A program made the translations under genes and the position numbers. A stretch of 64,000 nucleotides of DNA from Candidatus Multivorans sp. (GTDB lineage Bacteria; Acidobacteriota; Thermoanaerobaculia; Multivoradales; Multivoraceae): assembly GCA_965247095.1 (NCBI GenBank), contig OZ251997.1, forward strand, positions 2,595,689-2,659,688, given 5' to 3'. The stretch's first letter is position 1. Each line of letters opens with the position of its first letter. This document shows positions 12,079 through 50,474 of this stretch, in pieces. The notes under the pieces are model-generated. The model ran no database searches, was not told where the DNA came from, and saw nothing but the letters and a program-made list of their open reading frames with translations.

Positions 12079-13881
12079 ATGAGCGGTACACCCAAGGACG
12101 CTGAGCGCGGCCCTGCCGACGGTCCAGGTGCTGTGATGCGCCGCCGCCTCGAACAGGTACTGGCCGCCGGCCTGCAGTCGCCCATCTTCCGCTGGGAGAC
12201 CTGGCGGACGTTGTGGCCGCTGCGCCGCCGGGTTCAGGCGGCGCTGCTGGCCGTCCTCGCGGTGGCGGCGTTCTCGGCGTGGCGGGTTCAGCAGAAGGTC
12301 GGACAGGCGCGGCTCGAACTCGGTCTGGCGGAAGCGGCGACTGCCGGCGAGGGATTCGAGCGACTCGCCGAGCGGTCTCCAGGCCTGCTCAGCCTGGCCG
12401 CCCGGCACGCGGCCGGGGAGGGCCGCTGGCGCGAAGTGGCGGCGTTGTACGAGGACCATGCCGAACACCTGCCGCCGGCACTGCTGGCCGCGGCCGAGGT
12501 GGAACTCGGTGTGAATCGCGCCGAGGAAGCTGGAGCAGAATCGGCCGCGGACGAACCGCCGCCGGCGTCTGCGTTCGAGCGGCGTCTGCGGCGGGCACAG
12601 GCGGTCGACGCCTCGGGCGTGCAGCAACTGCTCTTCGACCGGCGGGGCCGGCCATTGGGATCGATCGGCGACGACCGTTCGTTGACGCTGGTAGAGGATC
12701 TGCCGGCCGGCCTGGTGCCGGTCGAGTTGGCGACCCATCTGCTGCCTTCCGCCCTCCAGCCGCCGGGTCTTGCCGCCGCCGGACCGGGGGCGATGAGCAG
12801 GTCCGCCGGCGCGCGAGCCCTGCGGCTGACGATCGACCGGGCCTGGAGCGAGGCGGCCGACACGGCGCTGGGCAGGGAAGAGGGCGCGATCGCGATCGTG
12901 GAGATCCCGTCGGGCGCGGTCCTGGCCGCGGTGAGCAACCGCGGTCGAAGCCGCCGGTGGCGGTCGAACGGCGACAGCGTCCTCGATCCGCGCGAGCCGG
13001 CGTCGATCGCCAAGCTGATCACCACGACGGCGGCGATGCGGGCCGGTCTCGACCCCGACCAGGAGATCGCCGACATGACCTGCCGCGGCTCGGTGCTGAT
13101 GGACGGTCAGCGGCTCTACTGCAGCGCGATCAACGGCCGGCTCCGGGGGCTCTCCGCAGCGATGGCCAGTAGCTGCAACGTCGCCTTCGCCAAGCTCGCG
13201 ATGGATGTCGGCGACCGGGCGCTGGTCGAAGAGTACGAACGCTACGGCTTCGTCATCGGCGGCAGGAGTAGCGAGGCGGTGCCGCGGAACGCCGTCGGTG
13301 TGGTGCATGAGTACCGTCACCCGGGCAAGCAGCTCGGCGATCTCTCGATCGGCCTGGAGGAGGCTTCGATCACACCGTTGGGGGCGGCCCTGTTCGCCGC
13401 CACCCTCTCGGACGGCCGCCGGCGCGAGCCGAGCTTCGTTCTGCAGGCGGACGGACTTCTGGGCATCTCGCCACGGACACCGGTCGGCGACGGTCCGCGC
13501 GAGGGCGTCGAGGTTCTCGACCCGTCCTGGCTGCCGGTGCTGCACGAGTCGATGCGCGCGGTCGTGTCTCCGGGCGGCTCGGCGAACCGGGTGGCGCCGA
13601 AGCGTCTCCGGGTGGCGATGAAGACGGGCACGGCGCGCGATCCGGACAAGCCGTTCCACGTGAACTACGCCGGCTTCTTCCCCTCCGACGAGAGCCAGCC
13701 GCCCCGATACGCCTTCGCGGTCAGGGTCACCGGCCAGCCGACGTCGGCACGGGTTCGCCGCGCCGGGTACGCCGTCACGTTCCGTCTGCTGCGGGCGCTC
13801 GACAGGTTGGTCGGCGAAGAGATCGAGACAGCGTCCCGGGTTCCGCAACGGCTGGCGGCAGCGACCGGAGCGAGCAAGTGA
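12079..13881 (+). CDS. Penicillin-binding protein, transpeptidase domain (PBP2-like)
   Basis: All three PBP motifs are present: SIAK (SxxK), SCN (SxN) and KTGT. There is an N-terminal membrane anchor. Confidence 0.8.
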   Translation: MSGTPKDAERGPADGPGAVMRRRLEQVLAAGLQSPIFRWETWRTLWPLRRRVQAALLAVLAVAAFSAWRVQQKVGQARLELGLAEAATAGEGFERLAERSPGLLSLAARHAAGEGRWREVAALYEDHAEHLPPALLAAAEVELGVNRAEEAGAESAADEPPPASAFERRLRRAQAVDASGVQQLLFDRRGRPLGSIGDDRSLTLVEDLPAGLVPVELATHLLPSALQPPGLAAAGPGAMSRSAGARALRLTIDRAWSEAADTALGREEGAIAIVEIPSGAVLAAVSNRGRSRRWRSNGDSVLDPREPASIAKLITTTAAMRAGLDPDQEIADMTCRGSVLMDGQRLYCSAINGRLRGLSAAMASSCNVAFAKLAMDVGDRALVEEYERYGFVIGGRSSEAVPRNAVGVVHEYRHPGKQLGDLSIGLEEASITPLGAALFAATLSDGRRREPSFVLQADGLLGISPRTPVGDGPREGVEVLDPSWLPVLHESMRAVVSPGGSANRVAPKRLRVAMKTGTARDPDKPFHVNYAGFFPSDESQPPRYAFAVRVTGQPTSARVRRAGYAVTFRLLRALDRLVGEEIETASRVPQRLAAATGASK

Positions 13882-24003: not shown

Positions 24004-25050
24004 CTACCAGGTGAGCTGACTCTTCATCCAACCCGACGTGTTGTGGAAGTCCGACACGGCGCTGCCCGGCGGCACCAAGGCGTCGCAGGCGGCGGCGATC
24101 TCGGGGTCGAGCGTCATCTCCTGGACCGCCACGAGTTCGTCGAAGTGTTCGCAGGTCCGGGGGCCGATCAGCGGCGCCGTGACGCCCGGCTGGTCCTTGC
24201 ACCACAGGATCGCCAGTTGGGCCGGCGTGATCCCGGCCTTGGCCGCGAGCTTGGCGAACTCGACGCCGACCCGGACGGCGCGCTCGGTGACCCGCCGCGC
24301 GTAGTACTTGCCGAGCAGGTCGGCACGGGAGCCTTCGGGGTACTGGTCTGCATCGGCGTAGCGGCCCGCCAGCACGCCCATCCCCAGCGGCGCCCAGGCG
24401 AGGATGCCGAGGCCGTGCTTCTGGCACAGGGGGATCAGCTCGTTCTCGATCCGGCGGTCGAGCAGGTTGTAGGGCGATTGCTCCGACGAGAAACGGGCGT
24501 AGCCCTTCATCTCGCTGACCATCAGCGCTTCCATCACGCTCCAGGCCGGATAGGTCGAACAGCCGATGTACCGGACCTTGCCGGCCCGGACCAGGTCGTC
24601 GAAGGCGCGCAACGTTTCGTCGATCGGGATGCTGAAGTCGGGGCGGTGGGTCTGGTACAGGTCGATGTGGTCCGTCTGCAGGCGCCGAAGCGCCGCGTCG
24701 CACGCGTTGAGAATCCCGGCCCGCGAGAGTCCCTGCTCGTTCGCGTTGTGCCCCGCCACGTGCTCCGACCGGGCGAGACCAGTCTGTTCGTCGAACTGGC
24801 CGGGATAGACCTTCGTCGAGATCACGACCTCGTGACGCCGGCCGGTCTCCTTGAGCACGCTGCCGACGATCCGTTCGGCTTTGCCATCGCCGTAGATGTG
24901 ACCGAGGTCGATCAGGTTGACGCCGGAGTCGAGCGTCCGCTCGATGATTCGCCGCGCTTCGTCTTCCGGCGTCACGTCGCCGAAGTTGCTCGTGCCGAGG
25001 CCGAGCGGCGAGACCTTCAGGCCGGTGCGGCCGAGGGTGCGGTAGTTCAT
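24004..25050 (-). CDS. Aldo/keto reductase
   Basis: Contains MNYRTLGRTGLKVSPLGLGTSNFG, LRRLQTDHIDLYQTHRP and GKVRYIGCSTYPAW. Confidence 0.9.
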   Translation of the reverse strand: MNYRTLGRTGLKVSPLGLGTSNFGDVTPEDEARRIIERTLDSGVNLIDLGHIYGDGKAERIVGSVLKETGRRHEVVISTKVYPGQFDEQTGLARSEHVAGHNANEQGLSRAGILNACDAALRRLQTDHIDLYQTHRPDFSIPIDETLRAFDDLVRAGKVRYIGCSTYPAWSVMEALMVSEMKGYARFSSEQSPYNLLDRRIENELIPLCQKHGLGILAWAPLGMGVLAGRYADADQYPEGSRADLLGKYYARRVTERAVRVGVEFAKLAAKAGITPAQLAILWCKDQPGVTAPLIGPRTCEHFDELVAVQEMTLDPEIAAACDALVPPGSAVSDFHNTSGWMKSQLTW

Positions 25051-29462: not shown

Positions 29463-32410
29463 CAGGACAGGGTCACGTCGAGCTGGAGCGTTTCGCCTGG
29501 TGCGAGGTCGATCCGCTGCAGGAGTTGGCGGACTCCCTGGGACTCCCGGACGAACGTCGCGAGGTCCGCTTCGGAGGCATCGGAGGCAAGGGATACGTCG
29601 AGCCGGCCATCGACGCTCCAGGAGCGCTCCGACGCCGGCACGATCTCCTCACCCTCGGCCAGCAACAGATAGAGCGGACGGGGGTCCGAGCCGGCGGAGA
29701 GCTGGAAGCGGCGGATCAGATTCGTGCCGCCGCCGCTGTGCAGTGGCGTCGGCGCCTCCTCGATCAGGAGGTCGTGCAGGCGGTAGCGCAGCACCGGTCT
29801 GCCCTCGTCGTCGAGCCGGTAGCCGAGGAAACGGCCGCCCACGTTCCGGTCGGCCCGGCCCGCCGTGGGCCAGGGGCTGTCGATGTCGCCCAGGTCCGCA
29901 AAGGCCGGACCCGGCGGAAGATCCAGCACATCCGTGCCGTAGGGGCCGAAGAACCGGCCCGCGCGGCCCTGCCACGTGCCCTTGGCGTCGAAGAAACCGC
30001 CTCGCCAGATCTTCGCCAGGCGGACGTTGTTCGCGTCGAAGGCGACGTGGACGTTCTCCGGGTAGCCGATGGCGATCGACCGCGGTCCGACATCGATCAT
30101 GAAGGTGCGGAACACGATCGGGCGCTCGTCCGGGACGAGAACCAGCTCGGCGCCGATGTTCGTGCCCTCGGGCGCGGGCATGGAAGTGCCGAGCGAGAGG
30201 GCGTTCCAGATCGCATCGATCTGGCCGTCCATCGAACCGCCGCCGAGATGCTGGAAGTTGACGACGCCTTCGGGCCAGAACGAGGGCATGCGGGTTCCCG
30301 GGCGGATCGCGGCCGGATCCCGCAGGAACCGCGCGACCCATCCGGGCCGCAACCGGTCGTAGACGGTGGCGAGGTCGATGGTCGAGACGCCTTGGGCGGG
30401 ATGGACGTGAACGTTGTGGCACGTGATGCAGCTCATGGACTTCTCGCCCAGCAGTTCAATCCCGTCGCGGGCGGCTTCAGTCGAGAAAACCGGTTCGTCG
30501 AGGTCGCCTGCCGCTGCGTCGACTGCTTCGAGCGCGGCGGCCAATCGTTCGGCCGCGGCCGCGGGGAAGCTCGGCATCCTGACCTCCATGAAGTCGCGGC
30601 GGACGTGCAGGTCGTCGCCGGTCAGGATCGAGCGCAACGCGCCCGGCTTCAGCTTTCCGCCGGCGCCGTGGAGCGGAGGCGGCAGCCGCCCCTCGTCGCC
30701 GAGGTCCTGGCCGCCGACGACGGCGAAGTACGTCGCGCGCACCGGATCCGGGCCGCCGACTTCCGCGTCACCGGCGCGTCGCTGGTGGCAGGCGTAGCAG
30801 TTGTAGCTCGCCATCGTGTGGACGATCTGGTCGCCGGGCTGCCGCGACTCCGCGAGATGGGAAAGCACCCCGAGTGCGGCCCGGATCGCGCGCCTCTGAT
30901 GACTGGCGAGCGGATAGCGCGGCGAGGAGTCGCCCGTGTGCATGCCGGGTCCGTTGACCACGGCGGCCGGATCCAGCTCGGCGAGAGGCGGCGGAGCGGC
31001 GACGTCCCGCCGGTCGGGCTGGATTCCCGAGTAGCCGTGGCACGAGGCGCAGCCGTGGCGAACGAAGAGTCGCGCGCCCCAGCCCGCGTCCTCCGCGTCC
31101 CGCGAAACCAGGGTTCCCCCGTCCGGCCGCAGCCGCACGTTCTCGTAGCTGGTGTAGTCGTCGAGAACAGCGCCCCGGGGGAGGGAAGCGCCCTCGAGGT
31201 TGACGCGGAGAAAGGGCTCTCCCGTGTCGCCGCGAATGAAGTAGGTCACTTCCACCGGGTGATCTCCGGCCTCTAGCTGGAGTCGGATGTCCGCCTCCCG
31301 GGCGCTGCCGGCGGTCTTGGTGGCGACCACCTCGCCGTCAACGGCGAGCGAGGAACCCGAGCGGCGGTCCGAGGCCAGGGTGAACGTGTAAGGGCCTGTC
31401 GCCGGCGCCCGCATCACGCCGGCAAACCGGTACGCGTGGTTGCCGTAGTTCATCTCGACCGGGAGGCGTAGCGACAGGCCGCGGATCCGACCCTCGGCGG
31501 CAGGTTCCATCGCGTCGAGGTCGGCAGGCGGCCGGTCGAAGAAGCCTCTTACGTCCTCGTCCTGCATGGGATCGAGGAAGTACTCGAACTCGAAGCCTTG
31601 CCGCCGCTCGACCACCTGCGGTTCCTGTTCCCGCAGCAGGTAGATCGCCAGATCCTCCGCTTCCGCCGGGGTCAGGTACAGGGACGGCATGCGCCCGCCT
31701 GGCCTTGTCGACCGTGGGTCCAGGAGGAACTTCGAGAGCGCCGCGACCGAGGTCTTGCCGGCAAGATCCGGCAGAGGGACGGAGGGAATGGCCGGTTCGG
31801 CGCCGGCAGCCTCCGGCGCGTGGCAGGCGACGCAGCCGATCGAGTGGAACAGCCTGCGCCCCCGCTCCACCGCGGCCCGGAAGCGGAACACCGGGAACTC
31901 ATCCGCCACACCGCCGCTCGCATCGTCGGCCGGGTGTGGGGCCCCGTCCGGCTCGGGCGGCTCTTCCTCGTAGAACAGGTAGCGCGCGATGGAACGCGCG
32001 ACGCGGTTCCCATCCTCGGGGTCGAGAGAGTGCAGGACCTCAGGCATCGTCGAGCCCGGCTTGTGTTCGTCCGGGTCGGCCAGGTAGGCGGTGAGCCACT
32101 CGACGGTGACCCGCTCGTTGAGCTCCGCGAGGTCGGGGGCCGTACGTGTGGGTATCCGTTTCGACACGTCGGGCGTCGGTTCATGGCAGGACAGGCAGTT
32201 CAGTTCGCCGAGCAGCACTTCGCCGAGGGCCGCCTCGCTGGCCGCGCCGGCCAGCCGCAGGTGCTCGTAGCCCGGCACGACCGGCGTCGGCGCGGCCGGA
32301 ACCGCCGCCTGGGCCTGAATCGCCGCGCTCAGCGCCGCGGCCAGGACCGGGAAGACGAGCCGGCCGGACCGGCTCGGACGCGGTGCGCGGCGGCCGATCA
32401 CATCGGCCAC
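29459..32410 (-). CDS. Multidomain c-type cytochrome with PA14-like domain
   Basis: Five CxxCH motifs (CLSCH, CVACH, CASCH, CYACH, CITCH). A PA14-like block reads YRFAGVMRAPATGPYTFTLASD...LQLEAGDHPVEVTYF. Confidence 0.8.
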   Translation of the reverse strand: MADVIGRRAPRPSRSGRLVFPVLAAALSAAIQAQAAVPAAPTPVVPGYEHLRLAGAASEAALGEVLLGELNCLSCHEPTPDVSKRIPTRTAPDLAELNERVTVEWLTAYLADPDEHKPGSTMPEVLHSLDPEDGNRVARSIARYLFYEEEPPEPDGAPHPADDASGGVADEFPVFRFRAAVERGRRLFHSIGCVACHAPEAAGAEPAIPSVPLPDLAGKTSVAALSKFLLDPRSTRPGGRMPSLYLTPAEAEDLAIYLLREQEPQVVERRQGFEFEYFLDPMQDEDVRGFFDRPPADLDAMEPAAEGRIRGLSLRLPVEMNYGNHAYRFAGVMRAPATGPYTFTLASDRRSGSSLAVDGEVVATKTAGSAREADIRLQLEAGDHPVEVTYFIRGDTGEPFLRVNLEGASLPRGAVLDDYTSYENVRLRPDGGTLVSRDAEDAGWGARLFVRHGCASCHGYSGIQPDRRDVAAPPPLAELDPAAVVNGPGMHTGDSSPRYPLASHQRRAIRAALGVLSHLAESRQPGDQIVHTMASYNCYACHQRRAGDAEVGGPDPVRATYFAVVGGQDLGDEGRLPPPLHGAGGKLKPGALRSILTGDDLHVRRDFMEVRMPSFPAAAAERLAAALEAVDAAAGDLDEPVFSTEAARDGIELLGEKSMSCITCHNVHVHPAQGVSTIDLATVYDRLRPGWVARFLRDPAAIRPGTRMPSFWPEGVVNFQHLGGGSMDGQIDAIWNALSLGTSMPAPEGTNIGAELVLVPDERPIVFRTFMIDVGPRSIAIGYPENVHVAFDANNVRLAKIWRGGFFDAKGTWQGRAGRFFGPYGTDVLDLPPGPAFADLGDIDSPWPTAGRADRNVGGRFLGYRLDDEGRPVLRYRLHDLLIEEAPTPLHSGGGTNLIRRFQLSAGSDPRPLYLLLAEGEEIVPASERSWSVDGRLDVSLASDASEADLATFVRESQGVRQLLQRIDLAPGETLQLDVTLSW

Positions 32411-32901
32411 TCGAGGCGTTCGGGGGGGACAACGGACGGCTCGTCCGGTCCGGGGAAGGCAGCCGGCACGCCGATCGTCACCTCGCCGGTGGCCGCGTAC
32501 TCCGTGCCGCGGGCGAGCGCGGTCTGGAAACCTGTGCAGTCCAGGGAGGCGCCGGCCGGGCCGCGCAGTGAGGCGTAGAGCTCGTCAGCCGCGTGCATCC
32601 AGGTGGTCGGCAGGCCGGCCAGGATGGGGTGGTCGGGCCGATCGTGGATGACCTGGAACTCCCGGATACGGCCGTGCCGGCCGCTCAACCCCTCGTCGGG
32701 CGAGGTGCTGACGTCTACCGTGAAGCGCCTGGTCCGCTCGAGCGTCGCCCTGACGGCGGCGGTGGTGCGCGCCCAGTCGTGGTTGTTCACGCCGCCGATG
32801 ATCAGGACCGGAATCCTCGCGTCCGCTCCGGCTGATTCGACTCGCGGCGCCGTGCAGCCGCACACCAGAACCAGGATCGCGATGGAGCGAGAAACGAGCA
32901 T
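32398..32901 (-). CDS. ThuA-like protein, unusually short (possible in-frame internal deletions)
   Basis: Three ThuA-type blocks, IPVLIIGGVNNHDWARTT, FQVIHDRPDHPILAGLP...DELYASLRGPA and GFQTALARGTEYAATGEVT, are packed into 167 aa. Confidence 0.6.
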   Translation of the reverse strand: MLVSRSIAILVLVCGCTAPRVESAGADARIPVLIIGGVNNHDWARTTAAVRATLERTRRFTVDVSTSPDEGLSGRHGRIREFQVIHDRPDHPILAGLPTTWMHAADELYASLRGPAGASLDCTGFQTALARGTEYAATGEVTIGVPAAFPGPDEPSVVPPERLEWPM

Positions 32902-32941
32902 TCAATCGGCGGTTGAACACGATACACGAGGAGATCCGCCC

Positions 32942-32983
32942 CTGGGAACGCGGGCGTCTCGCCCGCATCCGGCGCGGAGCGCC
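32942..32983 (+). repeat. REP-like hairpin element, copy 1
   Basis: CTGGGAACGCGGGCGTCTCGCCCGCATCCGGCGCGGAGCGCC, with stem GCGGGCG/CGCCCGC at 32950-32966. It lies in a divergent intergenic region. Confidence 0.8.
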
Positions 32984-33016
32984 CGTCTGGTTGCCGCCGG
33001 CAACTAGGATCGGACG

Positions 33017-34389
33017 GTGAGCGTCGCGAAAGCAGGCTCGGTTGCTCTTGTCCTCGCGATGCTCCTCGCTTGCGCGTCCGACCTGGGCGAGACTTCCGCG
33101 CCGCCGGCCGGGATCCCCCACCCCGAACTCGCGGAACTCGAACCGCCCCTAGCCCGAGAACTCGAAGCCCGCCGGGCCGGACTCGACGCGCTGCTCGCCG
33201 ACGAAGCCGCGACCGCCAAGGAGCAGGCCCAGGCCTTCGGCGAGCTGGGCCGGCTCTACCAGGCCGAGGAGTCCCTGGCGCGCAGCGGGACGACCAGGGT
33301 CGCGATGGCCGACCCGCTGATGCACGAATTGACGACCCTGGCGATCGGCGCCTCGCCGCACCTGGCGCGGGGCAATGCCGCCGCGCGGGAGGGCCGGCTG
33401 GCGGAAGCGGAGTCCGCCTACCGGCAGGCTGTGGCAGCCGACGCCGCGAATCCGCGCGCCCATCAGAGCCTGGGTACCGTCCTGGTTCGCCGTGGCAATC
33501 CGCAGGCGGCCCTGGAGCACTTCGGCGCCGCCGTCGCGCTGGAGCCGGAGAATGCCCGCGCGCACTCGGACCTCGGCGTCCTGCTGGGAGAGCTCGGGCA
33601 GAACGACCGCGCCCTGGAACACCTGGGCCGCGCGGTCGAACTCGAGCCTGGGCTGGTGCAGGCACTGCTGAGTCTCGGCAACGTCCAGGCGCGTATCGGT
33701 CGCCTGGACGAATCGGAAGCGACCTACCGCCGGGTGCTCGAGAGCGACACCGGCAACGGAGATGCCCGGCTCGGACTGGGGGCCGTCCTGGCGCAGACCG
33801 GCGACTTCGAGCAGGCCGTCGTCGAGTTGCAGGAAGCGCTACGGCACGAGCCGGGCGACGAGCGGGCCTCCCGCATCCACTTCGGCCTCGCCGAAGCCCT
33901 GGTGCGCACCGGCCAGCTTGAGGAAGCCCTGGCGCACTACACCCGCGTCCGCGAAATCGATCCCGACCAGGGCCTCGCCTGGCTGCGCGAGGCGACGGTG
34001 CTGATGGGCCTCGAACGTTTCGCCGACGCCAAGGGCGTGCTCGAAGCGCGGCTGGCAGTTGCGCCCGCCGACGACCGCGCCGCTCACTCCCTGGCGAGAC
34101 TGCTCGCCGGCGCACCCGACCCGTCGCTCCGCGACGGTCCGCGGGCCCTGGCCATCGCGGGCGTCTGCTCGAAGCAGACAACGCCGCGCCCGAGGCCGAG
34201 ACCGCCGCGATGGCCCTGGCTGAAGCCGGCCGCTTCGAGGAGGCGATCGACATCCAGCGCACCCTGGTCCAGGACGCGCGGCGGCTGGAGCGAGCGGGCG
34301 AGGAGCGGCGTCTGGCCCGGAACCTGGACCGGTACGAGCGCGGCGAGGCGTGCTGTGCGCGGGTGGGGGATGTACTTCCGCCGTATTGA
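33017..34389 (+). CDS. TPR-repeat lipoprotein with apparent 1-nt frameshift near nt 34160
   Basis: Lipobox LLAC and multiple TPR units. After ...RALAIAG the homologous reading continues in another frame (RLLEADNAAPEAETAAMALAEAGRFEEAIDIQ...GDVLPPY, stop 34387-34389). The track ORF instead runs on to 34495. Confidence 0.7.
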
Positions 34390-34419
34390 GCGGACTGGCG
34401 GTCTACCATTGAGGAGATC

Positions 34420-34707
34420 ATGGCGATGCAGAACCCACCACATCCGGGCGGGATCGTCCGAAGGCAGTGCCTGGAGCCCCTGGGGCTGTCCGTGACGCGA
34501 GCCGCAGAAGGCCTGGGCGTCACCCGGCAGGCGCTCTCCGACCTGGTGAACGGTCATGCCGGAGTGTCGACGGAGATGGCGGTTCGCCTGTCGAAGGCGT
34601 TCGGCTCGAGTCCTGAGACTTGGCTCGGGAGGCAGATGGCCTACGATCTTTGGCAGGTCCGCGACCGTGCCGAGCAGATCACGGTCGAGCGCTTTGACGC
34701 GGCCTGA
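34420..34707 (+). CDS. higA: HigA-family antitoxin (XRE HTH), no HigB partner
   Basis: Sequence reads HPGGIVRRQCLEPLGLSVTRAAEGLGVTRQALSDLVNGHAGVSTEMAVRLSKAFGSSPETWL. GAGGAG RBS is present. Confidence 0.85.
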   Translation: MAMQNPPHPGGIVRRQCLEPLGLSVTRAAEGLGVTRQALSDLVNGHAGVSTEMAVRLSKAFGSSPETWLGRQMAYDLWQVRDRAEQITVERFDAA

Positions 34708-34770
34708 GTGCCGGCGATGCAAGTAAGTTCCAACTAGCAGCTAGGGGCTTGCGCGGCAGGACGATCTGAC

Positions 34771-34812
34771 CTGGGAACGCGGGCATCCTGCCCGCATCCG
34801 GCGCGAAGCGCC
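34771..34812 (+). repeat. REP-like hairpin element, copy 2 (compensatory stem change)
   Basis: CTGGGAACGCGGGCATCCTGCCCGCATCCGGCGCGAAGCGCC. The stem is GCGGGCA/TGCCCGC instead of GCGGGCG/CGCCCGC. Confidence 0.8.
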
Positions 34813-34835
34813 GGCCTCTGGGAGTTCTGCCGCGC

Positions 34836-35246
34836 CTAGGCCGATCTGAGGCCGGTATCGACGAACTCTCGTGGGGAGACGACGCGAACGTTCTGCCTGG
34901 CGCTGGCTGGGAAGTGTCTGGCGTTTCCGGTGACCAGATAGTCGGCCAGGGCGGCTGCCGCCACTTCCAGGAAGGGCTCGTCGTGGGGATCGGGAAGCCT
35001 GGCCGGCAAGGGCATTGGAGAGGTCAGTTCGCCACGGGCTTCGACTTGTAGCAGTAGCGCGCTGATGTCCTCTTCAGCGAGAGAGAATCTGGGTCGGCGC
35101 AGTACCTCGGCGTACTCGGCGAGGATTCGCGCGTCGTAGCAGAGGCTGAGGCTGCCTGCAGCGGTCAGCCCGACGATGGTGCCCGGTGGCCCGAAGGGCG
35201 ATAGCAAACCGGAGACGAGGACGTTCGTGTCGACGACGATTCTCAT
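34836..35246 (-). CDS. PIN-domain toxin
   Basis: Contains MRIVVDTNVLVSGLLSP, PDPHDEPFLEVAAAALADYLVTGNARHF. Confidence 0.85.
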   Translation of the reverse strand: MRIVVDTNVLVSGLLSPFGPPGTIVGLTAAGSLSLCYDARILAEYAEVLRRPRFSLAEEDISALLLQVEARGELTSPMPLPARLPDPHDEPFLEVAAAALADYLVTGNARHFPASARQNVRVVSPREFVDTGLRSA

Positions 35247-35530
35247 GCGCGGCGTCGGCGCCGCGCTTCATTGATCTCAGCGTTCACTTCGTCGAGGCTC
35301 CACTGATCAAGGCCCGCTTCACGTGCTCGGCGCTGCATATTGAGCACAGCCAACTGTGCTCGGGCTTGCCGAAGCGCCGTCAGCGTTGCTTCGAGGGTCG
35401 ACGCGGTCGCGGCAGAAAGGACGGCGACCGGCTTGCCGTTGGAAGTGACCACGAGGTCCTTCGCTTCCCCCAGTGATTCCCAGACTGCTGCGGAGCGAGT
35501 ACGTAAGTCACGGATGCTGACGAATTCCAT
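35243..35530 (-). CDS. Phd/YefM-type antitoxin
   Basis: MEFVSIRDLRTRSAAVWESLGEAKDLVVTSNGKPVAVL. GAGGG RBS is present. The stop overlaps the PIN gene start. Confidence 0.8.
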   Translation of the reverse strand: MEFVSIRDLRTRSAAVWESLGEAKDLVVTSNGKPVAVLSAATASTLEATLTALRQARAQLAVLNMQRRAREAGLDQWSLDEVNAEINEARRRRRA

Positions 35531-35549
35531 GGGTGCAACCCTCAAGGTT

Positions 35550-35582
35550 CACAATCGAGTACACGACGGTGGCACGATTGTG
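35550..35582. promoter_or_regulatory. Inverted repeat upstream of the phd/PIN operon (candidate operator)
   Basis: CACAATCG (35550-35557) and CGATTGTG (35575-35582) are separated by 17 nt and lie 20-50 nt upstream of the antitoxin start. Confidence 0.25.
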
Positions 35583-35590
35583 TCTTCTCG

Positions 35591-36643
35591 TCAAGACCGT
35601 GGACCCAGGGTTTCCCCCTCGCCCTGAACCAGCGTCTGATACTCGCCAGGGCGCACATCCGTCCAACGCTCCACCGCGCCGTCGGGCCAGCGGACTTCGA
35701 CGTGGCTGACGCCGGCGTTCTCGCCATCGCCGAGGCCGACGAGCACTCTGGGGTCGCGGGCTGACGCGTTGCTGCCGTCGGTGTGGACGTGGCGCCAGAT
35801 GGGCGGTGCGTCGGCGCGGTGGACCAGGACGTGAGCGCCCAAGGCGTCGCGGTTGTGGGCGACGAGCCGGAGGCCCAGCCACGGGCGGCCTTGGCCGACC
35901 TGGTTCAGCAACAGACGGGTCGGCGCGTTGCTGTTGACGACGACGACATCGAGGTCGCCGTCGTTGTCGACATCGCCGAACGCGGCGGCGCGGCTGACTT
36001 CGGCCGACTCGAAGACGACGCCAGCCTCGGCCGTGACCTCGCGGAAGGCGCCGTCGCCACCATTGCGGAGGAGCTGGTTCGCCTGCCGCAGCGGGTACGG
36101 ATCGCCGGCGCGGATCAGCGCGTCGATGCCGATCACGGCGCCGTTGACGGCGAGCACGTCGAGCCAACTGTCGTTGTCGTAGTCGATCCAGCCGATGCCG
36201 AAGGTGGTGAAGGGGAGGCTGGGGGGCCCGAGTTGCGACGCCGCCGACTCGTCGCGGAACAGGCCGGCGCCGTCGTTGTCGAAGTCGAGCAGGGCCGCGC
36301 CGTAGTAGAGGGTCAGGGCGCTGCCGACGAAGGCCGTCGAGTACGGGATCGCCATGGACATGCGCGTCGCCGGCGCCAGCATGTCGTGCACCTCGATGGT
36401 GAAGCGCAGCGCCTGGTAGGCGAAGACGGCAAGGAAGGCGGCCGAGCTGAGCGCGACCACGGCGCCGATCCAGCGCTGCACCTTGGGCGGAGTCCTGTCG
36501 ACCAGGAACCGGAGCGCGAAGTGGGTGCCGGTCTTCATCGCGTAGGCGGCCGAGAGAGCCGCCAGCCACATGAGGAGAAACCGGGCCAGCTCTTCCGACC
36601 AGGACAGCCTGGTCCGCCACCCGCTCGAGGTGGCGGTGTGCAC
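35591..36643 (-). pseudogene. Chimeric ORF: TRAP small-permease (DctQ) fragment fused in frame to the C-terminal half of a CRTAC1/ASPIC-UnbV protein
   Basis: The N-part WSEELARFLLMWLAALSAAYAMKTGTHFALRFLVDR is DctQ-like and lacks its own N-terminus. The C-part DFDNDG...DVDNDGDLDVVVVNSN...RPWLGLRLV...NRDALGAHV is paralogous to 16733..18598. Confidence 0.6.
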
Positions 36644-36666
36644 GTTGCTGGTCGCCCGTCAATGCA

Positions 36667-37731
36667 CTAGTGCCCGCCCCAGATGTCGCCCACCACGAAG
36701 CCGTTGGGGAACGGGTCCTCCGGGTCGAGGACGTACTGGGCGAAGCCGGTAATCCACGCGGTGCCCGCCAGGGTCGGCACCGCGGCGGCGTAGTCGCCGA
36801 CCTGCGTCTCCCGAATCATGCGGCCCGTGAACGTCGTGCCCAGAATCCCCTCGTGGACGAAGTCCTGGCCGAGCGGCAGCTCGCCCTTGGCCCACATCGC
36901 CGCCATCTTGGCGCAGGTGCCGGTGCCGCAAGGTGAGCGGTCAAGCGCCCCGGTCCAGGTCAGCGGCTTGTTCCAGTCGAGCGTGCCGGTCGACACGATG
37001 ACCGTGTTGCGCCGGTCGGCGCCTGATGTCAGCGGCGGCGCGGAGAGCTGGCCGATCGTGACGCCGCGGATCTGCGGGTTCAGCGGGTGGACGGGCGCGG
37101 GAAGCTGCTCCTGGCAGGCGGCCTTGATCATCTCGCCGACCCGGGCGGCGTCGGCGGCTTCCTCGGGCGCCAGGGTGAGGCCGACCTGATCCGCGTCGGC
37201 GATGACGTAGAACATGCCGCCGTAGGCGACGTCGACCGTGACCTTGCCGAGTTCCGGCACGTCGAGTTCGGCGTCGAGATGGACGGCGAAGGCCGGCACG
37301 TTCTTGAACTCGACCCGCTTCACCTTGCCCCGCTCGACCTCGGCGCGCACTTGGATCAGGCCGGCGGGCGACTCCAGGGTGAGTTCGGTGAGCGGCTCCG
37401 TCGACGCCACCATCCCGGTCTCGATCAGCACGGTAGCGACGGCGATCGTGTTCGTGCCCGACATGCCGGGGTACTCGACCTGCTCCATGATCACGTAGCC
37501 GGCGACCGCATCGGGATGGGTGGCCGGGAGGATCAGGTTGCAGTTCGCCGCCGGATAGCCGCGCGGCTCGCGCAGCATGCGCAGCCGGAGTTCGTCGGCC
37601 TCGGTTTCGAGGTAGCGCATCTTCTCGAACATCGTCGATCCGGGGACGTCGAGGACGCCGCCGACGATCACCCGTCCCGGCTCGCCGCAGACGTGGGTGT
37701 CGACGGCGTGGATGACGTTGGAGACGCGCAT
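36667..37731 (-). CDS. Proline racemase / 4-hydroxyproline epimerase family protein
   Basis: Contains MRVSNVIHAVDTHVCGEPGRVIVGG, MSGTNTIAVATVL and DRSPCGTGTCAKMA. Confidence 0.85.
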   Translation of the reverse strand: MRVSNVIHAVDTHVCGEPGRVIVGGVLDVPGSTMFEKMRYLETEADELRLRMLREPRGYPAANCNLILPATHPDAVAGYVIMEQVEYPGMSGTNTIAVATVLIETGMVASTEPLTELTLESPAGLIQVRAEVERGKVKRVEFKNVPAFAVHLDAELDVPELGKVTVDVAYGGMFYVIADADQVGLTLAPEEAADAARVGEMIKAACQEQLPAPVHPLNPQIRGVTIGQLSAPPLTSGADRRNTVIVSTGTLDWNKPLTWTGALDRSPCGTGTCAKMAAMWAKGELPLGQDFVHEGILGTTFTGRMIRETQVGDYAAAVPTLAGTAWITGFAQYVLDPEDPFPNGFVVGDIWGGH

Positions 37732-37736
37732 CGGAT

Positions 37737-38936
37737 CTAACTCCCGGCTGGTGGAAGAACCGTCATCTTCATCCAGTCCGCCGTGTTGTGAAAGTCCGCC
37801 CGGGAGTTCTCCGGATAGTCGGACTCGCTCAGGTAGCGGCCGGCGAGCACGCCCATCGCCATCGGCGCCCAGGTAATCACGCCCACGCCGAGGCGCTGGC
37901 ACATCGGGATCAGCTCGTTCTCGATCCGGCGGTCGAGCAGGTTGTAGGGCGGTTGCTCGCTGACGAAGCGGGCGTAGCCCTTCAGTTCGCTCGTCATCAC
38001 GGCTTCGGCGACCATCCAGGCCGGGTGGGTCGAGCAGCCGATGTAGCGGATCTTGCCGGTCCGCACCAGGTCGTCCAGAGCTCTCAGGATCTCGTCGAAC
38101 GGGATCTCGGGCGACGGGCGGTGCAGTTGATAGAGGTCGATGTAGTCGGTCTGCAACCTTCGGAGCGACGCCTCGCAGGCGCGGATCAGGTTGAGGCGCG
38201 AGTGGCCGTACTCGTTGGGACCGATGCTGGCGGTGTAGTCCGTAACGCTCTCGCCGACGACTCGCCGCCCGAACGTGGTGTTGAAGAACTCGAGGTCGTC
38301 CTGGATGAACTGGAAGCCCTGCAGTCCCGTTTCGAGAAAGGCCATGTGGTCCGTGCAGCAGGTGTTGCCGGGCACGATCCAGGACATCCCCACATCGTGG
38401 AAGGGCGCCATCCAGGCCTCGAAGATCGGTCGCGCCCTGTCGTTGCCCTGCAGGTAGATGCCTCGGAAGCGGCCGTACCAGTCGACGTTGAAGTACACGG
38501 ACAGGTTCGCGTGCGCGGCCGGCTTCTCGGGCGACTCGGGATCGCCGAAGTGCTCGCGCACGTAGACCCGGGAGCCGAGCAGCCCGCTCTCTTCCGCGCC
38601 CCAGAGCGCTGCTCGGATCGTGCGCCGGGGCTTGAGGTCGAGGGCCCGCAGGAGCCGCATCGCCTCCATCACGATCGCACTGCCCGCCGCGTTGTCGGTG
38701 GCAGCCGTCGTAGGAGGGGAGTTCGCGTACCGGGGACCGTAGACGTCGGTCAGGACGCGGGCGAACTCCATCACCTGGGAGCGCCGAAAGCCCTCGTCGC
38801 GCAGGTCGGCTACGACGGTCTCGGCGCCAGCGGTCGGCTTGCCGTCGCCGTGTTCCTCGGCGCGAGACTCGTTCCCGCCGAGCAGCGCAACGAGCGCGAG
38901 GAGTGCCGGCATCCGGGTGACACCGCGTGCGATCAT
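37737..38936 (-). pseudogene. Chimeric ORF: M28 peptidase fragments fused in frame to aldo/keto reductase fragments
   Basis: A signal peptide is followed by [20 protein letters not shown]...[13 protein letters not shown]...CCTDHMAF (M28). Then comes [31 protein letters not shown]...[13 protein letters not shown] (AKR). This lacks about 87 aa that the paralog 24004..25050 carries between SRAD and FHNT. Confidence 0.6.
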
Positions 38937-38974
38937 CAGCAGCCTGGCACTATACAGCCGTCCCGGGCACACGG

Positions 38975-39006
38975 ATGGCACGCGGGCGTCTCGCCCGCAT
39001 CCGGCG
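38975..39006 (+). repeat. REP-like hairpin element, copy 3
   Basis: GGCACGCGGGCGTCTCGCCCGCATCCGGCGG, with the stem at 38982-38998. Confidence 0.75.
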
Positions 39007-39017
39007 GCGACTACACT

Positions 39018-39500
39018 GCCGCAGTGTCGGCCATCGATTTCGTCCAGCGGATGATCTCGGCCGATTCGGGCCGCTCGGCCAAGCGCGGCTGCTATCTGGC
39101 CGCGGGGCTGACGCTGGTGGTCGGGCTCGCCGTCTCCCTGATCGGGCTGTCGGCGTTCTACTTCGGCCGGGACCCGGGTTCCTCGCTGCTGATCGACCTC
39201 GCCTTGAGCGATCTGCCGGGCCTGGTGGGCGGCGGGATCCTGCTCGGTCTGTTCTGGCGCAAGGCGAACACTCCGGGGGCACTGGCCGGTGTGATTGCCG
39301 GTAGCGTCGCCCGAATGACTCTCCACTTCGCGGTGGCCGATGCGTACCGCGGCCTCGACACCCTGCTGGCGCCGGTCTTCAGCCTGGCCGCCATGGTGAC
39401 CGTGTCGCTGCTGACCCAGGCCGCGTATCGACCGCGGCACGACGAGTTGAAGCGCGTGCCGTCCGAGCGCGATCTTGTGGCTGGCCTGGACGGCGCCTAG
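39018..39500 (+). pseudogene. Sodium:solute symporter (SSF) C-terminal fragment
   Basis: The tail of track ORF 37788..39500 reads [30 protein letters not shown]...[23 protein letters not shown]. There is no N-terminal half and no start. Confidence 0.55.
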
Positions 39501-39535
39501 GAGTCCGCGAGGCGGAGCGATGGGCCACTCTGGAC

Positions 39536-39569
39536 CTGGGAACGCGGGCGTCTCGCCCGCATCCGGCGC
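39536..39569 (+). repeat. REP-like hairpin element, copy 4
   Basis: CTGGGAACGCGGGCGTCTCGCCCGCATCCGGCGC, with the stem at 39544-39560. It abuts the IS630 insertion. Confidence 0.8.
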
Positions 39570-39571
39570 TA

Positions 39572-40708
39572 GTGTAGTGTCTCCGATATGGGTTGACAGT
39601 TTCGGGCAAGTTCGTCAGTATGCCGTTCATGTGGGAACCAGCGGAACGACTTCACATCGAAGAGAGGGATCGAGCGCTTCTCAAGAAATGGGTAGAGGCG
39701 CCGACGACGACGCAACGCACGGTCCGGCGTAGCCGGATCGTGCTCGCTGCGGCGGAGGGCACGGCCAATCGGGCGATTGCGGCGAAACTCGGCGTTTCGC
39801 GGCCCACGGTGCTGCTGTGGCGTCGTCGGTTCGCGGAGGACGGACCTTCGGGGCTGACCAGGGATCGTCCCCGCGGTTGCGGAAAGCCGCCGCTCTCGGA
39901 GTCGGTCGTGCGTAAAGTGATCGAAGCGACGCTGCACGAGAAGCCGCCCGGTCAGACCCACTGGAGCGTGCGTTCGATGGCTCGGGCCCAGGGCATCAGT
40001 CCGGCGGCGGTCCAGCGCATCTGGGTGGCGCACGGGCTGAAGCCCCATCTGGTCAAGACGTTCAAGCTGAGCAACGACCCCAGGTTCGTGGAAAAGCTGC
40101 GGGACGTTGTGGGCCTGTACCGGAATCCGCCCGAGAACGCGCTTGTGCTGTGCGTGGACGAGAAGAGCCAGATCCAGGCTCTGGACCGGACCCAGCCGGG
40201 CTTGCCGCTCAAGCGCGGCCGCGCGGGAACGATGACCCACGACTACAAGCGCAACGGGACGACGACGTTGTTCGCTGCGCTGAACGTGTTGGAGGGCACG
40301 GTGATCGCGGAGTGCATGGGCCGGCAGCGCCACCAGGAGTTTCTCCGTTTCCTCAAGCGTCTCGACCGTGAGATCCCGAAGCATCTCGACCTGCACCTGA
40401 TCCTGGACAACTACCAGACCCACAAACACGACGCCGTGCGCGCATGGCTGGAGCGAAAGCCTCGCTTCCACTTCCATTTCATTCCCACTTCGTCGCCCTG
40501 GCTCAACCTGGTCGAACGCTGGCTGGGCGGTCTGACCACGAAGGCGATCCGGCGCGGTGCATTCCAGAGCGTCAACGACCTCGTAAAGACCATCTACGAC
40601 TACGTGGAGCACAGCAACGAAAACTCCCGGCCGTTCGTCTGGACGGCCACCGCCGACAGCATCATCGCAAAGGTTACACGTGGTAAAGCCATGTTGGAGA
40701 CAGTACAC
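39572..40708 (+). mobile_element. IS630-family insertion sequence
   Basis: Terminal inverted repeats GTGTAGTGTCTCCGATATGG and CCATGTTGGAGACAGTACAC, flanked by TA on both sides (39570-71 and 40709-10). Confidence 0.85.
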
Positions 40709-40711
40709 TAG
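39620..40711 (+). CDS. IS630-family DDE transposase
   Basis: Contains VLCVDEKSQIQALDR, YKRNGTTTLFAAL, LILDNYQTHKH and PTSSPWLNLVERW. The stop TAG is completed by the flanking TA. An alternative TTG start lies at 39593. Confidence 0.85.
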   Translation: MPFMWEPAERLHIEERDRALLKKWVEAPTTTQRTVRRSRIVLAAAEGTANRAIAAKLGVSRPTVLLWRRRFAEDGPSGLTRDRPRGCGKPPLSESVVRKVIEATLHEKPPGQTHWSVRSMARAQGISPAAVQRIWVAHGLKPHLVKTFKLSNDPRFVEKLRDVVGLYRNPPENALVLCVDEKSQIQALDRTQPGLPLKRGRAGTMTHDYKRNGTTTLFAALNVLEGTVIAECMGRQRHQEFLRFLKRLDREIPKHLDLHLILDNYQTHKHDAVRAWLERKPRFHFHFIPTSSPWLNLVERWLGGLTTKAIRRGAFQSVNDLVKTIYDYVEHSNENSRPFVWTATADSIIAKVTRGKAMLETVH

Positions 40712-41080
40712 CAGCAGCCTCGACGAACAGGTTCGGCGCCTGGAGCGCCTGCTCCGACGCGAGCTCGAGGCGGAGGGCCTCAAGGTGGAGGAAGCTGTCG
40801 AGAAGGGCGAACGGGTGCTGGTCATCGGCGAAATGAGGATCTTCCCCCGGCGTCTTCTCGAAGGCCAACTCACGGCAGCCGATACAAGCGACTCGAGCAC
40901 CGTCGACCTCGATTGGCTCGCCGCCGCCCACCGCAGTTACTTCCGCAACCTGCGCCGGTTCCATCCGAGTCTGGTCGTTCGGTAGCAGCGTGCGCGGCAG
41001 GAAGAATCGGCGTACCCCATGTTCTGCGGCGCACGCTTGCATGGAACAAACCCCTCGTCCTGGCCGGCCCTTCGTGCCTA

Positions 41081-41108
41081 ATGCGGGCGAGACGCCCGCG
41101 TTCCCCAG
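41081..41108 (-). repeat. REP-like hairpin element, copy 5 (inside tandem unit 1)
   Basis: ATGCGGGCGAGACGCCCGCGTTCCCCAG is the reverse complement of the REP core. The stem lies at 41083-41099. Confidence 0.75.
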
Positions 41109-41224
41109 GGCGGACCGAAGTAGCGACCACGCTCTTACGGTGTTCCCTGCGCGACAGCGCAGCGATACCGCTGTGGGTACTTGCATGGAACAAACCCCTC
41201 GTCCTGGCCGGCCCTTCGTGCCTA

Positions 41225-41252
41225 ATGCGGGCGAGACGCCCGCGTTCCCCAG
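41225..41252 (-). repeat. REP-like hairpin element, copy 6 (inside tandem unit 2)
   Basis: Same sequence as copy 5, located 144 nt downstream. Confidence 0.75.
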
Positions 41253-41410
41253 GGCGGACCGAAGTAGCGACCACGCTCTTACGGTGTTCCCTGCGCGACA
41301 GCGCAGCGATACCGCTGTGGGTACTTGCATGGAACAAGCCCTGTTCCCTGTGCGTCAGCGCGGCGCGGACGCCGCGACTCGACTCCTAGCCGGCGTACAC
41401 TTGGCGGCCG

Positions 41411-46720: not shown

Positions 46721-47203
46721 TCATCTCTTGTTGCGGCGGCCCGCTTCAAGAGCCTGGAGGACCTCCTCCGGGGTTCGTTCGGCAGAGGCGAACGGATCGA
46801 TCACCCGAACTTCGCCGAAAGTCTGGCCGTGCTGGAGATCCTCGGTGAGGAGGACCGGACATCCACACGATTGAGCGGCCGCCACGATCAACGCGTCCCA
46901 CCAGGACAGCGAAGTGGCCTGCTCGAGAATCCACGCTCGTTCCATGATGGCGAGGTTGACCGGGACCGGCTGCCACGCGGCCAGAGCCCGGACGATCTGG
47001 CGAGCTTTGGCGCCGCCCATGCCCGGCTTCAGCTTGCGGGTAAGGGTCGCGTACAGCTCCTGCAAGACCTGCACACTCAGGCGGCCGGAGTGGCTGCGCC
47101 ATAGATACGAGTACCAGTCTTCGGCACGCGACTGCTTCGCCGGGTCGGACGAGTCGTGCCGGTAGACGAGTACGTTCGTGTCAACGAAGACCGGGCCGGT
47201 CAT
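46721..47203 (-). CDS. PIN-domain toxin (VapC-like)
   Basis: Contains VFVDTNVLVYRHD, WWDALIVAAAQSCGCPVLLTEDLQHG. Confidence 0.85.
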   Translation of the reverse strand: MTGPVFVDTNVLVYRHDSSDPAKQSRAEDWYSYLWRSHSGRLSVQVLQELYATLTRKLKPGMGGAKARQIVRALAAWQPVPVNLAIMERAWILEQATSLSWWDALIVAAAQSCGCPVLLTEDLQHGQTFGEVRVIDPFASAERTPEEVLQALEAGRRNKR

Positions 47204-47423: not shown

Positions 47424-47440
47424 GGCACGAGACTAGGGAA

Positions 47441-47455
47441 ACACGAAGTTCGTGT
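47441..47455. promoter_or_regulatory. Perfect 15-bp palindrome upstream of the RHH/PIN operon (candidate operator)
   Basis: ACACGAAGTTCGTGT lies 18-32 nt upstream of the antitoxin GTG. Confidence 0.3.
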
Positions 47456-47574
47456 CAATGAGTTCCGGAGTGTCTTCGGTGGTGGCCCCGCGACATGCGA
47501 AAAGGGCGTGGCCAGCGGCCGCGCCCTTGGAAGACTTGGTAGCGGGGGCAGGATTTGAACCTGCGAGCCTTGGG
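47456..47574 (-). repeat. tRNA-fMet-derived repeat: distal partial unit, hairpin, and the 3' part of the unit split by IS21
   Basis: Contains GTGTCTTCGGTGGTGGCCCCGCG (47470-47492, 5' acceptor-like), a hairpin at 47502-47528, and TGGTAGCGGGGGCAGGATTTGAACCTGCGAGCCTTGGG (47537-47574). Confidence 0.75.
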
Positions 47575-47687
47575 TGGAGGCATGGCTCGGAAACTGAGCC
47601 ACCCAACGCTCGGAAAGTGATCCACCCTCGGCCCTGACACCGGTAGCTTGGTCTTGTTCAGTAGACCAACGCGCTCGGAGGAAGGAC

Positions 47688-50154: not shown

Positions 50155-50397
50155 CCTTGGGCTATGGCAGGCCGATGAGCTAGGTGTTCCAGAGGTGTGT
50201 TCGGTGGTGCCCCCGCGACAAGCAAGAAGGGCGCGGCCAGCGGCCGCGCCCTTAGAAGACTTGGTAGCGGGGGCAGGATTTGAACCTGCGAGCCTTGGGC
50301 TATGGCAGGCCGATGAGCTAGGTGTTCCAGAGGTGTGTTCGGTGGTGCCCCCGCGGCAAGCAGAAAGGGCGCGGCCAGCGGCCGCGCCCTTGAAGCT
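50155..50397 (-). repeat. tRNA-fMet-derived tandem units (about 136-nt period), each a degenerate tRNA-like segment plus a GC-rich hairpin
   Basis: The 5' part of the IS21-split unit is 50155-50217. The full pseudo-tRNA unit is 50262-50355 (CGCGGGGG...TCGCAGGTTCAAATCCTGCCCCCGCTACCA on the minus strand). Hairpins lie at 50227-50253 and 50365-50391. Confidence 0.8.
50365..50391 (-). terminator. Hairpin immediately 3' of tRNA-fMet (candidate intrinsic terminator)
   Basis: AAGGGCGCGGCC-GCT-GGCCGCGCCCTT forms a 12-bp perfect stem, followed on the minus strand by TCTGCTTG, which is only weakly U-rich. Confidence 0.5.

Positions 50398-50474
<77 letters not shown>

Follow-up and report, generated by a model that had tools for sequence, protein, structure and literature searches.

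A REP/BIME-Like Family of Tagged Hairpin Repeats in Candidatus Multivorans

Introduction

A stretch of 64,000 nucleotides (nt) from contig OZ251997.1 of Candidatus Multivorans sp. (hereafter the window) carries several copies of a short, GC-rich hairpin in its intergenic and decayed regions. An earlier reading of this DNA, made from the sequence alone, had described six such copies and proposed that they belong to a family resembling the repetitive extragenic palindromic (REP) sequences of other bacteria. The locus raises the questions of whether this hairpin is a true dispersed repeat, whether the pairing of its stem is maintained, where its copies lie with respect to genes, and what kind of element it is.

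REP-like repeats have been described mainly in the Proteobacteria, the Cyanobacteria, and a few other phyla. In the literature searched, neither the core sequences nor the name Candidatus Multivorans was found, and no REP-like repeats were found reported for the Thermoanaerobaculia. We describe here a new family resembling REPs and bacterial interspersed mosaic elements (BIMEs), and thus a familiar kind of bacterial repeat. With moderate confidence, we regard it as a lineage-specific family of Candidatus Multivorans that acts, most likely, as a transcribed hairpin at the 3' ends of genes.

Results

The repeat unit and its copies in the window

The repeat unit consists of CCTGGGAAC, the palindrome GCGGGC-R-TCY-Y-GCCCGC (hairpin 1), and ATCCGG; when aligned, the copies in the window share the core CTGGGAAC-GCGGGCG-TCT-CGCCCGC-ATCCGG. 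A short unpaired tag, (C)CTGGGAAC or more generally KGMAC, lies directly 5' of hairpin 1. All copies in the window fold into the 7-bp stem and 3-nt loop that had been described for them. Through G.U pairs the stem could reach 11 bp on the reverse strand, an extension that nothing else supports. In about 60% of copies the first hairpin is followed, after AT, by a second one, CCGGCGC-GNA-GCGCCGG (hairpin 2), the loop of which is mostly GAA, GGA, GCA, or GTA, with the first G and the final A fixed and the middle base varying freely. A few variants of hairpin 2 have compensated stems (CCGCC-GNA-GGCGG, CCGGCC-GCA-GGCCGG, and CCGGCGT-GGA-ACGTCGG). The motif cGNAg is familiar as the loop of unusually stable single-stranded DNA mini-hairpins, and is a lead for hairpin 2.

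The exact 17-mer GCGGGCGTCTCGCCCGC is found in the window at 32950, 38982, and 39544 on the forward strand and at 41083 and 41227 on the reverse strand, with a further exact copy at 15936 (forward) that the sequence-only reading had missed; a variant, GCGGGCATCCTGCCCGC, is found at 34779 (forward). All six copies reported earlier are real, and the window contains seven. The six are not six independent insertions: a perfect tandem duplication with units of 144 bp (41036-41323) accounts for copies 41083 and 41227, one in each unit. Larger, TA-flanked miniature inverted-repeat transposable elements (MITEs) carry three of the seven as cargo. When up to three mismatches are allowed, the window gives 18 matches, compared to 4.2 +/- 2.1 in dinucleotide shuffles, and none of 100 shuffles reached 18. 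The copies are the following:

15924-15965, forward: in-frame copy with leader CCTGGGCAC, hairpin GCGGGCG-TCT-CGCCCGC (15936-15952), then ATCCGG; inside open reading frame (ORF) 13878-16736.
32935-32984, forward: solo copy with leader CCTGGGAAC, hairpin 1 (32950-32966), AT, and a shortened hairpin 2, GGCGC-GGA-GCGCC.
34770-34814, forward: core of the MITE at 34738-34842, with leader (34770-34778), hairpin 1 GCGGGCA-TCC-TGCCCGC (34779-34795), and hairpin 2 CCGGCGC-GAA-GCGCCGG (34798-34814).
38958-39006, forward: truncated copy with the right-arm remnant of an upstream hairpin (CCGGGCACACGGA), TGGCAC, hairpin 1 (38982-38998), and ATCCGGCG.
39535-39569, forward: solo copy with leader (39535-39543), hairpin 1 (39544-39560), and tail ATCCGGCGC.
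41083-41099 and 41227-41243, reverse: hairpin 1 of two copies with leader CTGGGGAAC and tail ATTAGG, not ATCCGG.

Abundance and phylogenetic range

Species genomes of the Genome Taxonomy Database (GTDB) were scanned for the pattern CTGGGAACGC-N11-15-GCATCCGGCG, and all of the resulting counts are lower bounds. At least 107 matches to the strict pattern were obtained, spread over 100 blocks of 8 kb that were selected for containing the repeat; together with the window these blocks make up 0.86 Mb (about 15% of each genome). Eighty-six of these blocks come from seven species genomes of Candidatus Multivorans (Thermoanaerobaculia, Acidobacteriota), and a few others from two further Thermoanaerobaculia metagenome-assembled genomes (MAGs) and one Acidobacteria MAG, giving ten related genomes in all. 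About ten additional matches in unrelated taxa were rejected as chance, the hairpin being absent between the flanks. An nhmmer search of the window and the retrieved loci identified at least 159 copies of the repeat. The window itself is 92%-94% identical to OZ253534 (loci L004 and L072), and therefore derives from a close relative of that Candidatus Multivorans species.

A metagenome scan for the same tag with a different third stem base returned only six chance or coding matches. A viral scan returned a single canonical copy, GGGAACGCGGGCGTCCCGCCCGCATCC, in one IMG/VR contig (IMGVR_UViG_3300032284_002779; L108 4339-4365); with one copy in one contig, a phage vector is not indicated. This contig of 38.7 kb has a GC content of 66% and may represent a prophage or phage of a host like Candidatus Multivorans.

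Pairing and constraint in hairpin 1

Pairing in hairpin 1 is kept in 98.5% of cells across 104 distinct copies. Its closing pair exists in two common states, GC in 51 copies and AU in 50, with GU in one and other combinations in two, and the covariation score of this pair exceeds that of all 500 shuffles. As haplotypes, G-TCT-C occurs 54 times, A-TCC-T 51, G-TCC-C 17, and A-TCT-T 13, and approximately three copies are mismatched at the closing pair. The double change that the sequence-only reading had noticed in copy 34779 is thus one of two frequent paired states, and its expectation that the element would recur elsewhere with a covarying stem is borne out by the 159 or more copies and their closing pair.

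The switch between G-C and A-T is also seen at one orthologous site, where some genomes have G-TCT-C and others A-TCT-T; therefore, the compensatory state changes either in place or through conversion by copies located elsewhere. At seven orthologous pairs of sites the 34-nt core has two mismatches in 238 positions, whereas the divergence of the flanks predicts about 25 (P = 5e-9).

Position, orientation, and turnover of copies

The statistics of position are based on 96 independent sites, to which the individual copies were reduced. Sense orientation prevails: a same-strand gene has its 3' end against the 5' side of the repeat at 61 sites, compared to 18 (p = 1e-6), and where the flanking genes are co-directional, sense copies number 37 and antisense copies 13 (p = 9e-4). 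The gene pairs around the copies are co-directional in 50 cases, convergent in 18, and divergent in only four (convergent versus divergent, p = 0.004). Copies accumulate 1-50 nt past the stop codon, with a median distance of 25 nt. Neighboring copies tend to share an orientation, both when less than 200 nt apart (14 of 17 pairs direct, three inverted) and at 400 nt or more (29 of 37 pairs in the same orientation). No replication-strand bias was found when orientation was compared with GC skew (64 versus 57). These positional features are those described for REPs (PMC3733652). From their location after stop codons, mostly in sense, and their avoidance of gaps between divergent genes, it follows that most copies should be transcribed, either at the 3' end of an mRNA or in the gap between two cistrons.

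Sister species differ through gain and loss of copies: although the sample is biased towards presence, the element is missing or its units differ in number in about a dozen comparisons of orthologous sites. One operon (L044 1036-2898, CBDCVC010000002) has three sense copies in three consecutive intercistronic gaps; two of the three are missing from its orthologue in L077, and in L044 the start regions of the downstream genes fall within or just after the inserted segment.

Arrays, mosaics, and in-frame copies

The tag CCTGGGAAC precedes hairpin 1 in 125 of its 146 occurrences, and in about 12 others it precedes an unrelated 12-bp hairpin (CCGGGTGGCGCG/CGCGCCACCCGG) that shows G-C, T-A, and A-T covariation of its own. 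A composite element of about 90 nt joins three different hairpins, each after GGGAAC, GTGAAC, or TGGMAC, and a sister family has the form CTGGGTGC-GCCGGCC-TTCT-GGCCGGC-ATCCG. Since the tag stands before different hairpins, the design is one of a conserved unpaired tag plus a hairpin, combined in BIME-like mosaics. No other tagged hairpin families were found in the window beyond its seven copies. Across all loci, the unit occurs solo, in mosaics with other tagged hairpins, as MITE cargo, and in head-to-tail arrays with periods of 26, 33, and 39 nt. Arrays of three to four units are present at the following places:

L078 2066-2193 and 2846-2963
L077 124-233
L040 5698-5764
L088 3277-3329

The 33-nt array in L078, with a period of 11 codons, sits in an open frame and encodes a repeated PGNAGVPPASG. 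In the window, copy 15936 is in frame within a 952-residue multihaem cytochrome/tetratricopeptide repeat (TPR) protein, where it forms a 14-residue stretch of the linker between the multihaem and TPR parts. Orthologues with 89%-92% identity lack the insert and are 943 or 946 residues long; closer orthologues have a 22-residue insert, a truncated version, or two tandem copies, and alignment of the DNA (loci L101-L106) confirms the presence, absence, and copy-number variation within this gene. Seven other ORFs continue through a copy and show coding periodicity to either side of it; five of them use the same 11-residue linker frame, and the in-frame inserts read as Pro/Gly/Ala/Ser linkers. On the opposite strand, the GCGRDARVP-like peptide that had been reported for spurious ORFs is indeed present in reverse-strand frames.

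A probable role at transcript 3' ends

We infer an RNA-level function, as well as the means of spread, from these patterns of position, orientation, and occurrence. The proposed mechanism is that the double hairpin, predicted to be very stable (approximately -19 kcal/mol), most likely either blocks 3'-exonucleases, and so would protect the mRNA, or serves in termination or attenuation. The repeat also hitch-hikes in TA-targeting MITEs, and inserts that land in genes survive as a tolerated, flexible linker. Like intrinsic terminators, the repeats place a stable GC-rich hairpin right after stop codons in the sense orientation; unlike them, they have no U-tract, recur with the same sequence at more than 100 sites, and are also found inside ORFs and between the cistrons of operons.

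Several observations weigh against this interpretation. In hairpin 1 a single base pair covaries and six are nearly invariant; that these other positions are almost identical could be due to recent spread, to gene conversion, or to sequence-specific recognition by a protein rather than to selection on structure. Both arms would also be altered together by self-templated correction of the palindrome or by gene conversion, so that selection on the structure, as the sequence-only reading suggested, has competing explanations. G-T and A-C mismatches are equally rare (3 versus 4 and 6 versus 5), so there is no strand-specific wobble signature of selection at the RNA level. The sense bias could stem from the mechanism of insertion rather than from function. 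A consensus scan for terminators and promoters called no copy, and neither hairpin is followed by a T-run (the tails are ATCCGGCG and CCTCCGG). The coding strand beside the copies, on which the 61 versus 18 sites rest, was called by codon-position GC periodicity (checked on known genes) and not by annotation. Finally, genome-wide copy numbers are extrapolations, because the loci were chosen for containing the element and amount to 100 blocks.

Comparison with REP systems and their transposases

Similarity to the REPs and BIMEs of the Enterobacteria and Pseudomonas is extensive: a length of 30-45 nt, a high copy number, an unpaired conserved tag followed by a GC-rich imperfect palindrome, location between co-directional or convergent genes and rarely between divergent ones, mosaics, occasional intragenic copies, and presence or absence among relatives. 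A strict REP/REPIN system would go further, with a single-copy HUH tyrosine transposase, either a REP-associated tyrosine transposase (RAYT) or a terminal inverted repeat (TIR)-associated one (TIRYT), moving the tagged hairpins as single-stranded DNA; the tag would be its cleavage or recognition site, and the position after genes would reflect only tolerance of insertion. The cGNAg triloop of hairpin 2, a motif of very stable single-stranded DNA mini-hairpins, would suit such a system. The combination of a conserved unpaired tag with a variable hairpin follows the logic of REPs, the same tag stands before three different hairpins, the lack of wobble asymmetry is what pairing at the DNA level predicts, copies come and go between species, and TIR-associated tyrosine transposases are encoded in Acidobacteria (PMC3733652).

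Nevertheless, several hallmarks of that system were not found. Hairpin 1 is preceded by CCTGGGAAC and followed by ATCCGG, and when read on the reverse strand its stem continues into GTTCCCAGG, so that the GTAG tag (as defined in PMC3733652) is absent; a CGTC (or TGTC/CCTC) tag with an 8-9-bp stem starting with A-T is likewise absent, the stem being GCGGGCR/YGCCCGC. Compared to GTAG REPs, the tag here is (C)CTGGGAAC/KGMAC, the units are singletons or head-to-tail rather than head-to-head or tail-to-tail doublets (only three of the 17 close pairs are inverted, which leaves no REPIN doublets), there is a marked sense-strand bias, and two hairpins are adjacent, the second with a GNA triloop. A phmmer search with the E. 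coli RayT protein of 6431 six-frame ORFs in the 0.86 Mb, a single-sequence search and hence insensitive, had a best E of 2.3, and ORFs between inverted copies are ordinary genes, with nothing transposase-like among them. Orientation has no GC-skew bias (64 versus 57), and the strong bias with the direction of transcription is not predicted by a strict REP/REPIN system. On the features tested, the family is not a classical RAYT-type REP, and we judge such a system to be rather unlikely here. The sequence-only reading's comparison to REPs holds insofar as the family is dispersed, has at least 159 copies, and lies after genes, and fails insofar as there is neither a GTAG or CGTC tag nor an inverted dimer.

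Somewhat less probable still, and speculative, is that the family represents a third class of tagged palindromic repeats (KGMAC/CCTGGGAAC) beside the GTAG and CGTC super-families, with its own mobilizing enzyme, insertion coupled to the direction of transcription, and co-option by the host. Such an enzyme would insert sense, head-to-tail copies after stop codons, unlike the replication-coupled, single-stranded DNA route of RAYT and IS200/IS605, and the host would then co-opt the repeats as modules of 3' untranslated regions and as in-frame linker cassettes.

Other known systems were also considered. The Rickettsia palindromic elements (RPEs) and CGTC REPs are similar in being palindromic, in lying in frame in conserved protein genes and being tolerated as an extra peptide, and in having no known dedicated transposase; compared to RPEs, the present family is much GC-richer and shorter (33-45 nt versus approximately 100-150 nt for RPE-1) and lies mostly outside genes, just after stops. 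At the Rfam gathering threshold only a tRNA was detected, and permissive matches on 34700-34880 all had E >= 0.78, with scores far below their cut-offs. A CRISPR-like array was rejected on inspection, the head-to-tail arrays having no spacers, as was an integron attC site, the R/L core sites of attC being missing.

MITEs and an IS630-family element

Three larger mobile elements are associated with the repeats in the window:

34738-34842, forward: MITE of approximately 105 nt with terminal inverted repeats GGGGCTTGCGCGGCAGGAC ... GTTCTGCCGCGCC and CTAG flanks.
39572-40708, forward: IS630-family insertion sequence (IS) of 1137 bp with a DDE_3 transposase (39593-40711) and 30-nt terminal inverted repeats.
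40986-41386, reverse: insertion of approximately 400 nt, TA-flanked, with MITE-like ends GCAGCGTGCGCGGCAGG..., at the TAG stop of ORF 40680-40985.

The 105-nt MITE, with ends GCGCGGCAG.../...CTGCCGCGC and a 19-nt inverted repeat (TA-GGAGCTTGCGCGGCAGAAC), matches more than 25 loci at 90%-97% identity and folds into a Y shape (z = -4.1); a clean empty site is provided by L001 when compared with the filled L078. Its neighbors are PIN and HigA-like helix-turn-helix (HTH) genes, neither of which was on record in exact-protein look-ups, and the PIN gene (34836-35246, reverse), which is convergent with it, takes its TAG stop from the right-hand CTAG of the MITE (34836-34839). The 400-nt insertion, which contains the tandem duplication with copies 41083 and 41227, is not present in the orthologue L072. 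The IS630 element has a TA duplication at 39570-71 and 40709-10, and L072 keeps the repeat copy without the IS; the element is not part of the repeat family and was inserted at its edge, at the CTAG where the 3' side of copy 39544 is broken.

These elements suggest an alternative in which the solo hairpins are decayed internal fragments of a TA-targeting (IS630/Tc1-type) MITE of about 105 nt, the sole mobile form. Such a form exists, with its 19-nt inverted repeats, TA/CTAG flanks, and empty site; a second TA-flanked insertion (about 400 nt) carries the core, and IS630-family transposases are present. In a 68% GC genome, moreover, TA sites are concentrated in TAG/TAA stop codons, and therefore MITEs would land right after genes, as at 34836-34839 and 40983-40985. 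Similarity to IS630/Tc1-mariner MITEs (e.g., Correia-like elements) is clear for the 105-nt and 400-nt forms, in their terminal inverted repeats, flanks, and orthologous empty sites, but fits only about 10% of copies, in which the hairpin core is cargo and not a transposition signal. Inverted repeats accompany just 17 of the 159 or more copies (with TAG at the left edge in 13 of the 17), and solo copies, which lack them, share an upstream context of their own (TCCGnn) rather than the interior of the MITE. They also combine with other hairpins in mosaics, are found in head-to-tail arrays, start 1-50 nt beyond a stop codon and not at its TA, and have a core more conserved than its flanks, unexpected for decaying debris. 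The inverted repeats of the IS630 element in the window (GTGTAGTGTCTCCGATATGGG) are unrelated to those of the MITE, and in this comparison, which covers the IS copy in the window, no autonomous IS with matching ends was found. An origin of the solo copies as MITE debris thus appears improbable.

Elements that target TA (the 105-nt MITE, the 400-nt insertion, and IS630-like ends of the form TAGTGT...) recur exactly on TAG stops or on a CTAG that borders a repeat, as at 34836-34839, at 40983-40985, and in loci L029 and L047. At 68% GC, the stop codons and the repeats themselves seem to supply the rare TA/CTAG targets.

DNA-binding sites and chance palindromes

The repeat might instead be a site at the DNA level that binds a protein or structures the chromosome, a role that has been proposed for BIMEs together with gyrase, IHF, or Pol I; it would then be maintained because a protein recognizes its sequence, and not for its RNA structure. 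Across species, the 9-nt tag and all but one of the seven stem pairs hardly vary, conservation is higher in the core than in its flanks, and wobble asymmetry is missing, all of which such a site would explain. The orientation of copies, on the other hand, tracks transcription (61 versus 18) and not GC skew, sister species differ in which copies they have, tandem arrays and in-frame insertions within ORFs would be unexpected, and no binding protein can be named; we hold this explanation, like MITE debris, to be improbable. Independently evolved terminator hairpins or chance GC-rich palindromes are excluded, despite the 336 perfect hairpins of 6 bp or more in the 68% GC window (the same number as in the reversed sequence), by an identical 17-mer and 9-nt tag at more than 100 unrelated sites in ten genomes, including within ORFs, by 125 matches to the hairpin-plus-flank pattern in real sequence against none in the reversed control, and by the absence of a U-tract.

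Genomic surroundings in the window

The claim that copies border gene remnants and the IS630 insertion was confirmed on both counts. Copy 38982 lies at the junction of an M28 peptidase fragment (reverse) and a C-terminal fragment of a sodium:solute symporter (forward), with an orthologous copy in L072; it has no GGGAAC leader, GATGGCAC standing in its place, and is the 3' end of the composite element of about 90 nt that is intact at other loci. Copy 39544 lies 34 nt past the TAG stop of the same symporter fragment. Solo copy 32950 is placed between the divergent genes 32398-32901 (reverse) and 33017-34495 (forward).

Across 35500-39500 of the window, gene fragments are fused into long spurious ORFs with repeats at the junctions. 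The fusions include DctQ with FG-GAP/ASPIC and a C-terminal aldo-keto reductase fragment with an M28 peptidase fragment, and the C-terminal symporter fragment is present as well; the aldo-keto reductase fragment (37833-38105) is 80% identical to an intact paralogue at 24358-24630. The TPR ORF 33017-34495 overlaps the start of the HigA-like HTH gene (34420-34707) by 76 nt and has an out-of-frame TGA upstream; the TPR gene may be frameshifted here or have lost its original 3' end by decay.

Other repeated and mobile DNA is found elsewhere in the window. A tRNA-Met (CAT) gene lies at 50398-50474 (reverse), and its 3' half with about 100 nt is partly copied at 47430-47579 and 50155-50304; a 138-bp tandem repeat at 50155-50454 also carries partial copies. 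These partial copies resemble attachment-site duplications around an inserted segment of approximately 2.7 kb, beside the PIN toxin gene 46721-47203. ORF 7578-8867, situated where the GC content drops to about 60%, has the rve integrase core domain of an IS3/IS481-type transposase and thus adds a second IS family to the window.

Discussion

The two-state closing pair of hairpin 1 (G-C or A-T, and almost never mismatched), together with the GNA loop of hairpin 2, makes this family a clear natural test of stem pairing. With no GTAG tag, no inverted doublets, and no RAYT so far, the family bears on whether all such repeats need HUH transposases. It also matters for the annotation of these MAGs, in which the repeats create spurious ORFs with recurrent peptides and extend or interrupt real genes. 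Within the genomes of Candidatus Multivorans, the repeats mark regions prone to rearrangement and offer CTAG targets for the insertion of IS630-family elements.

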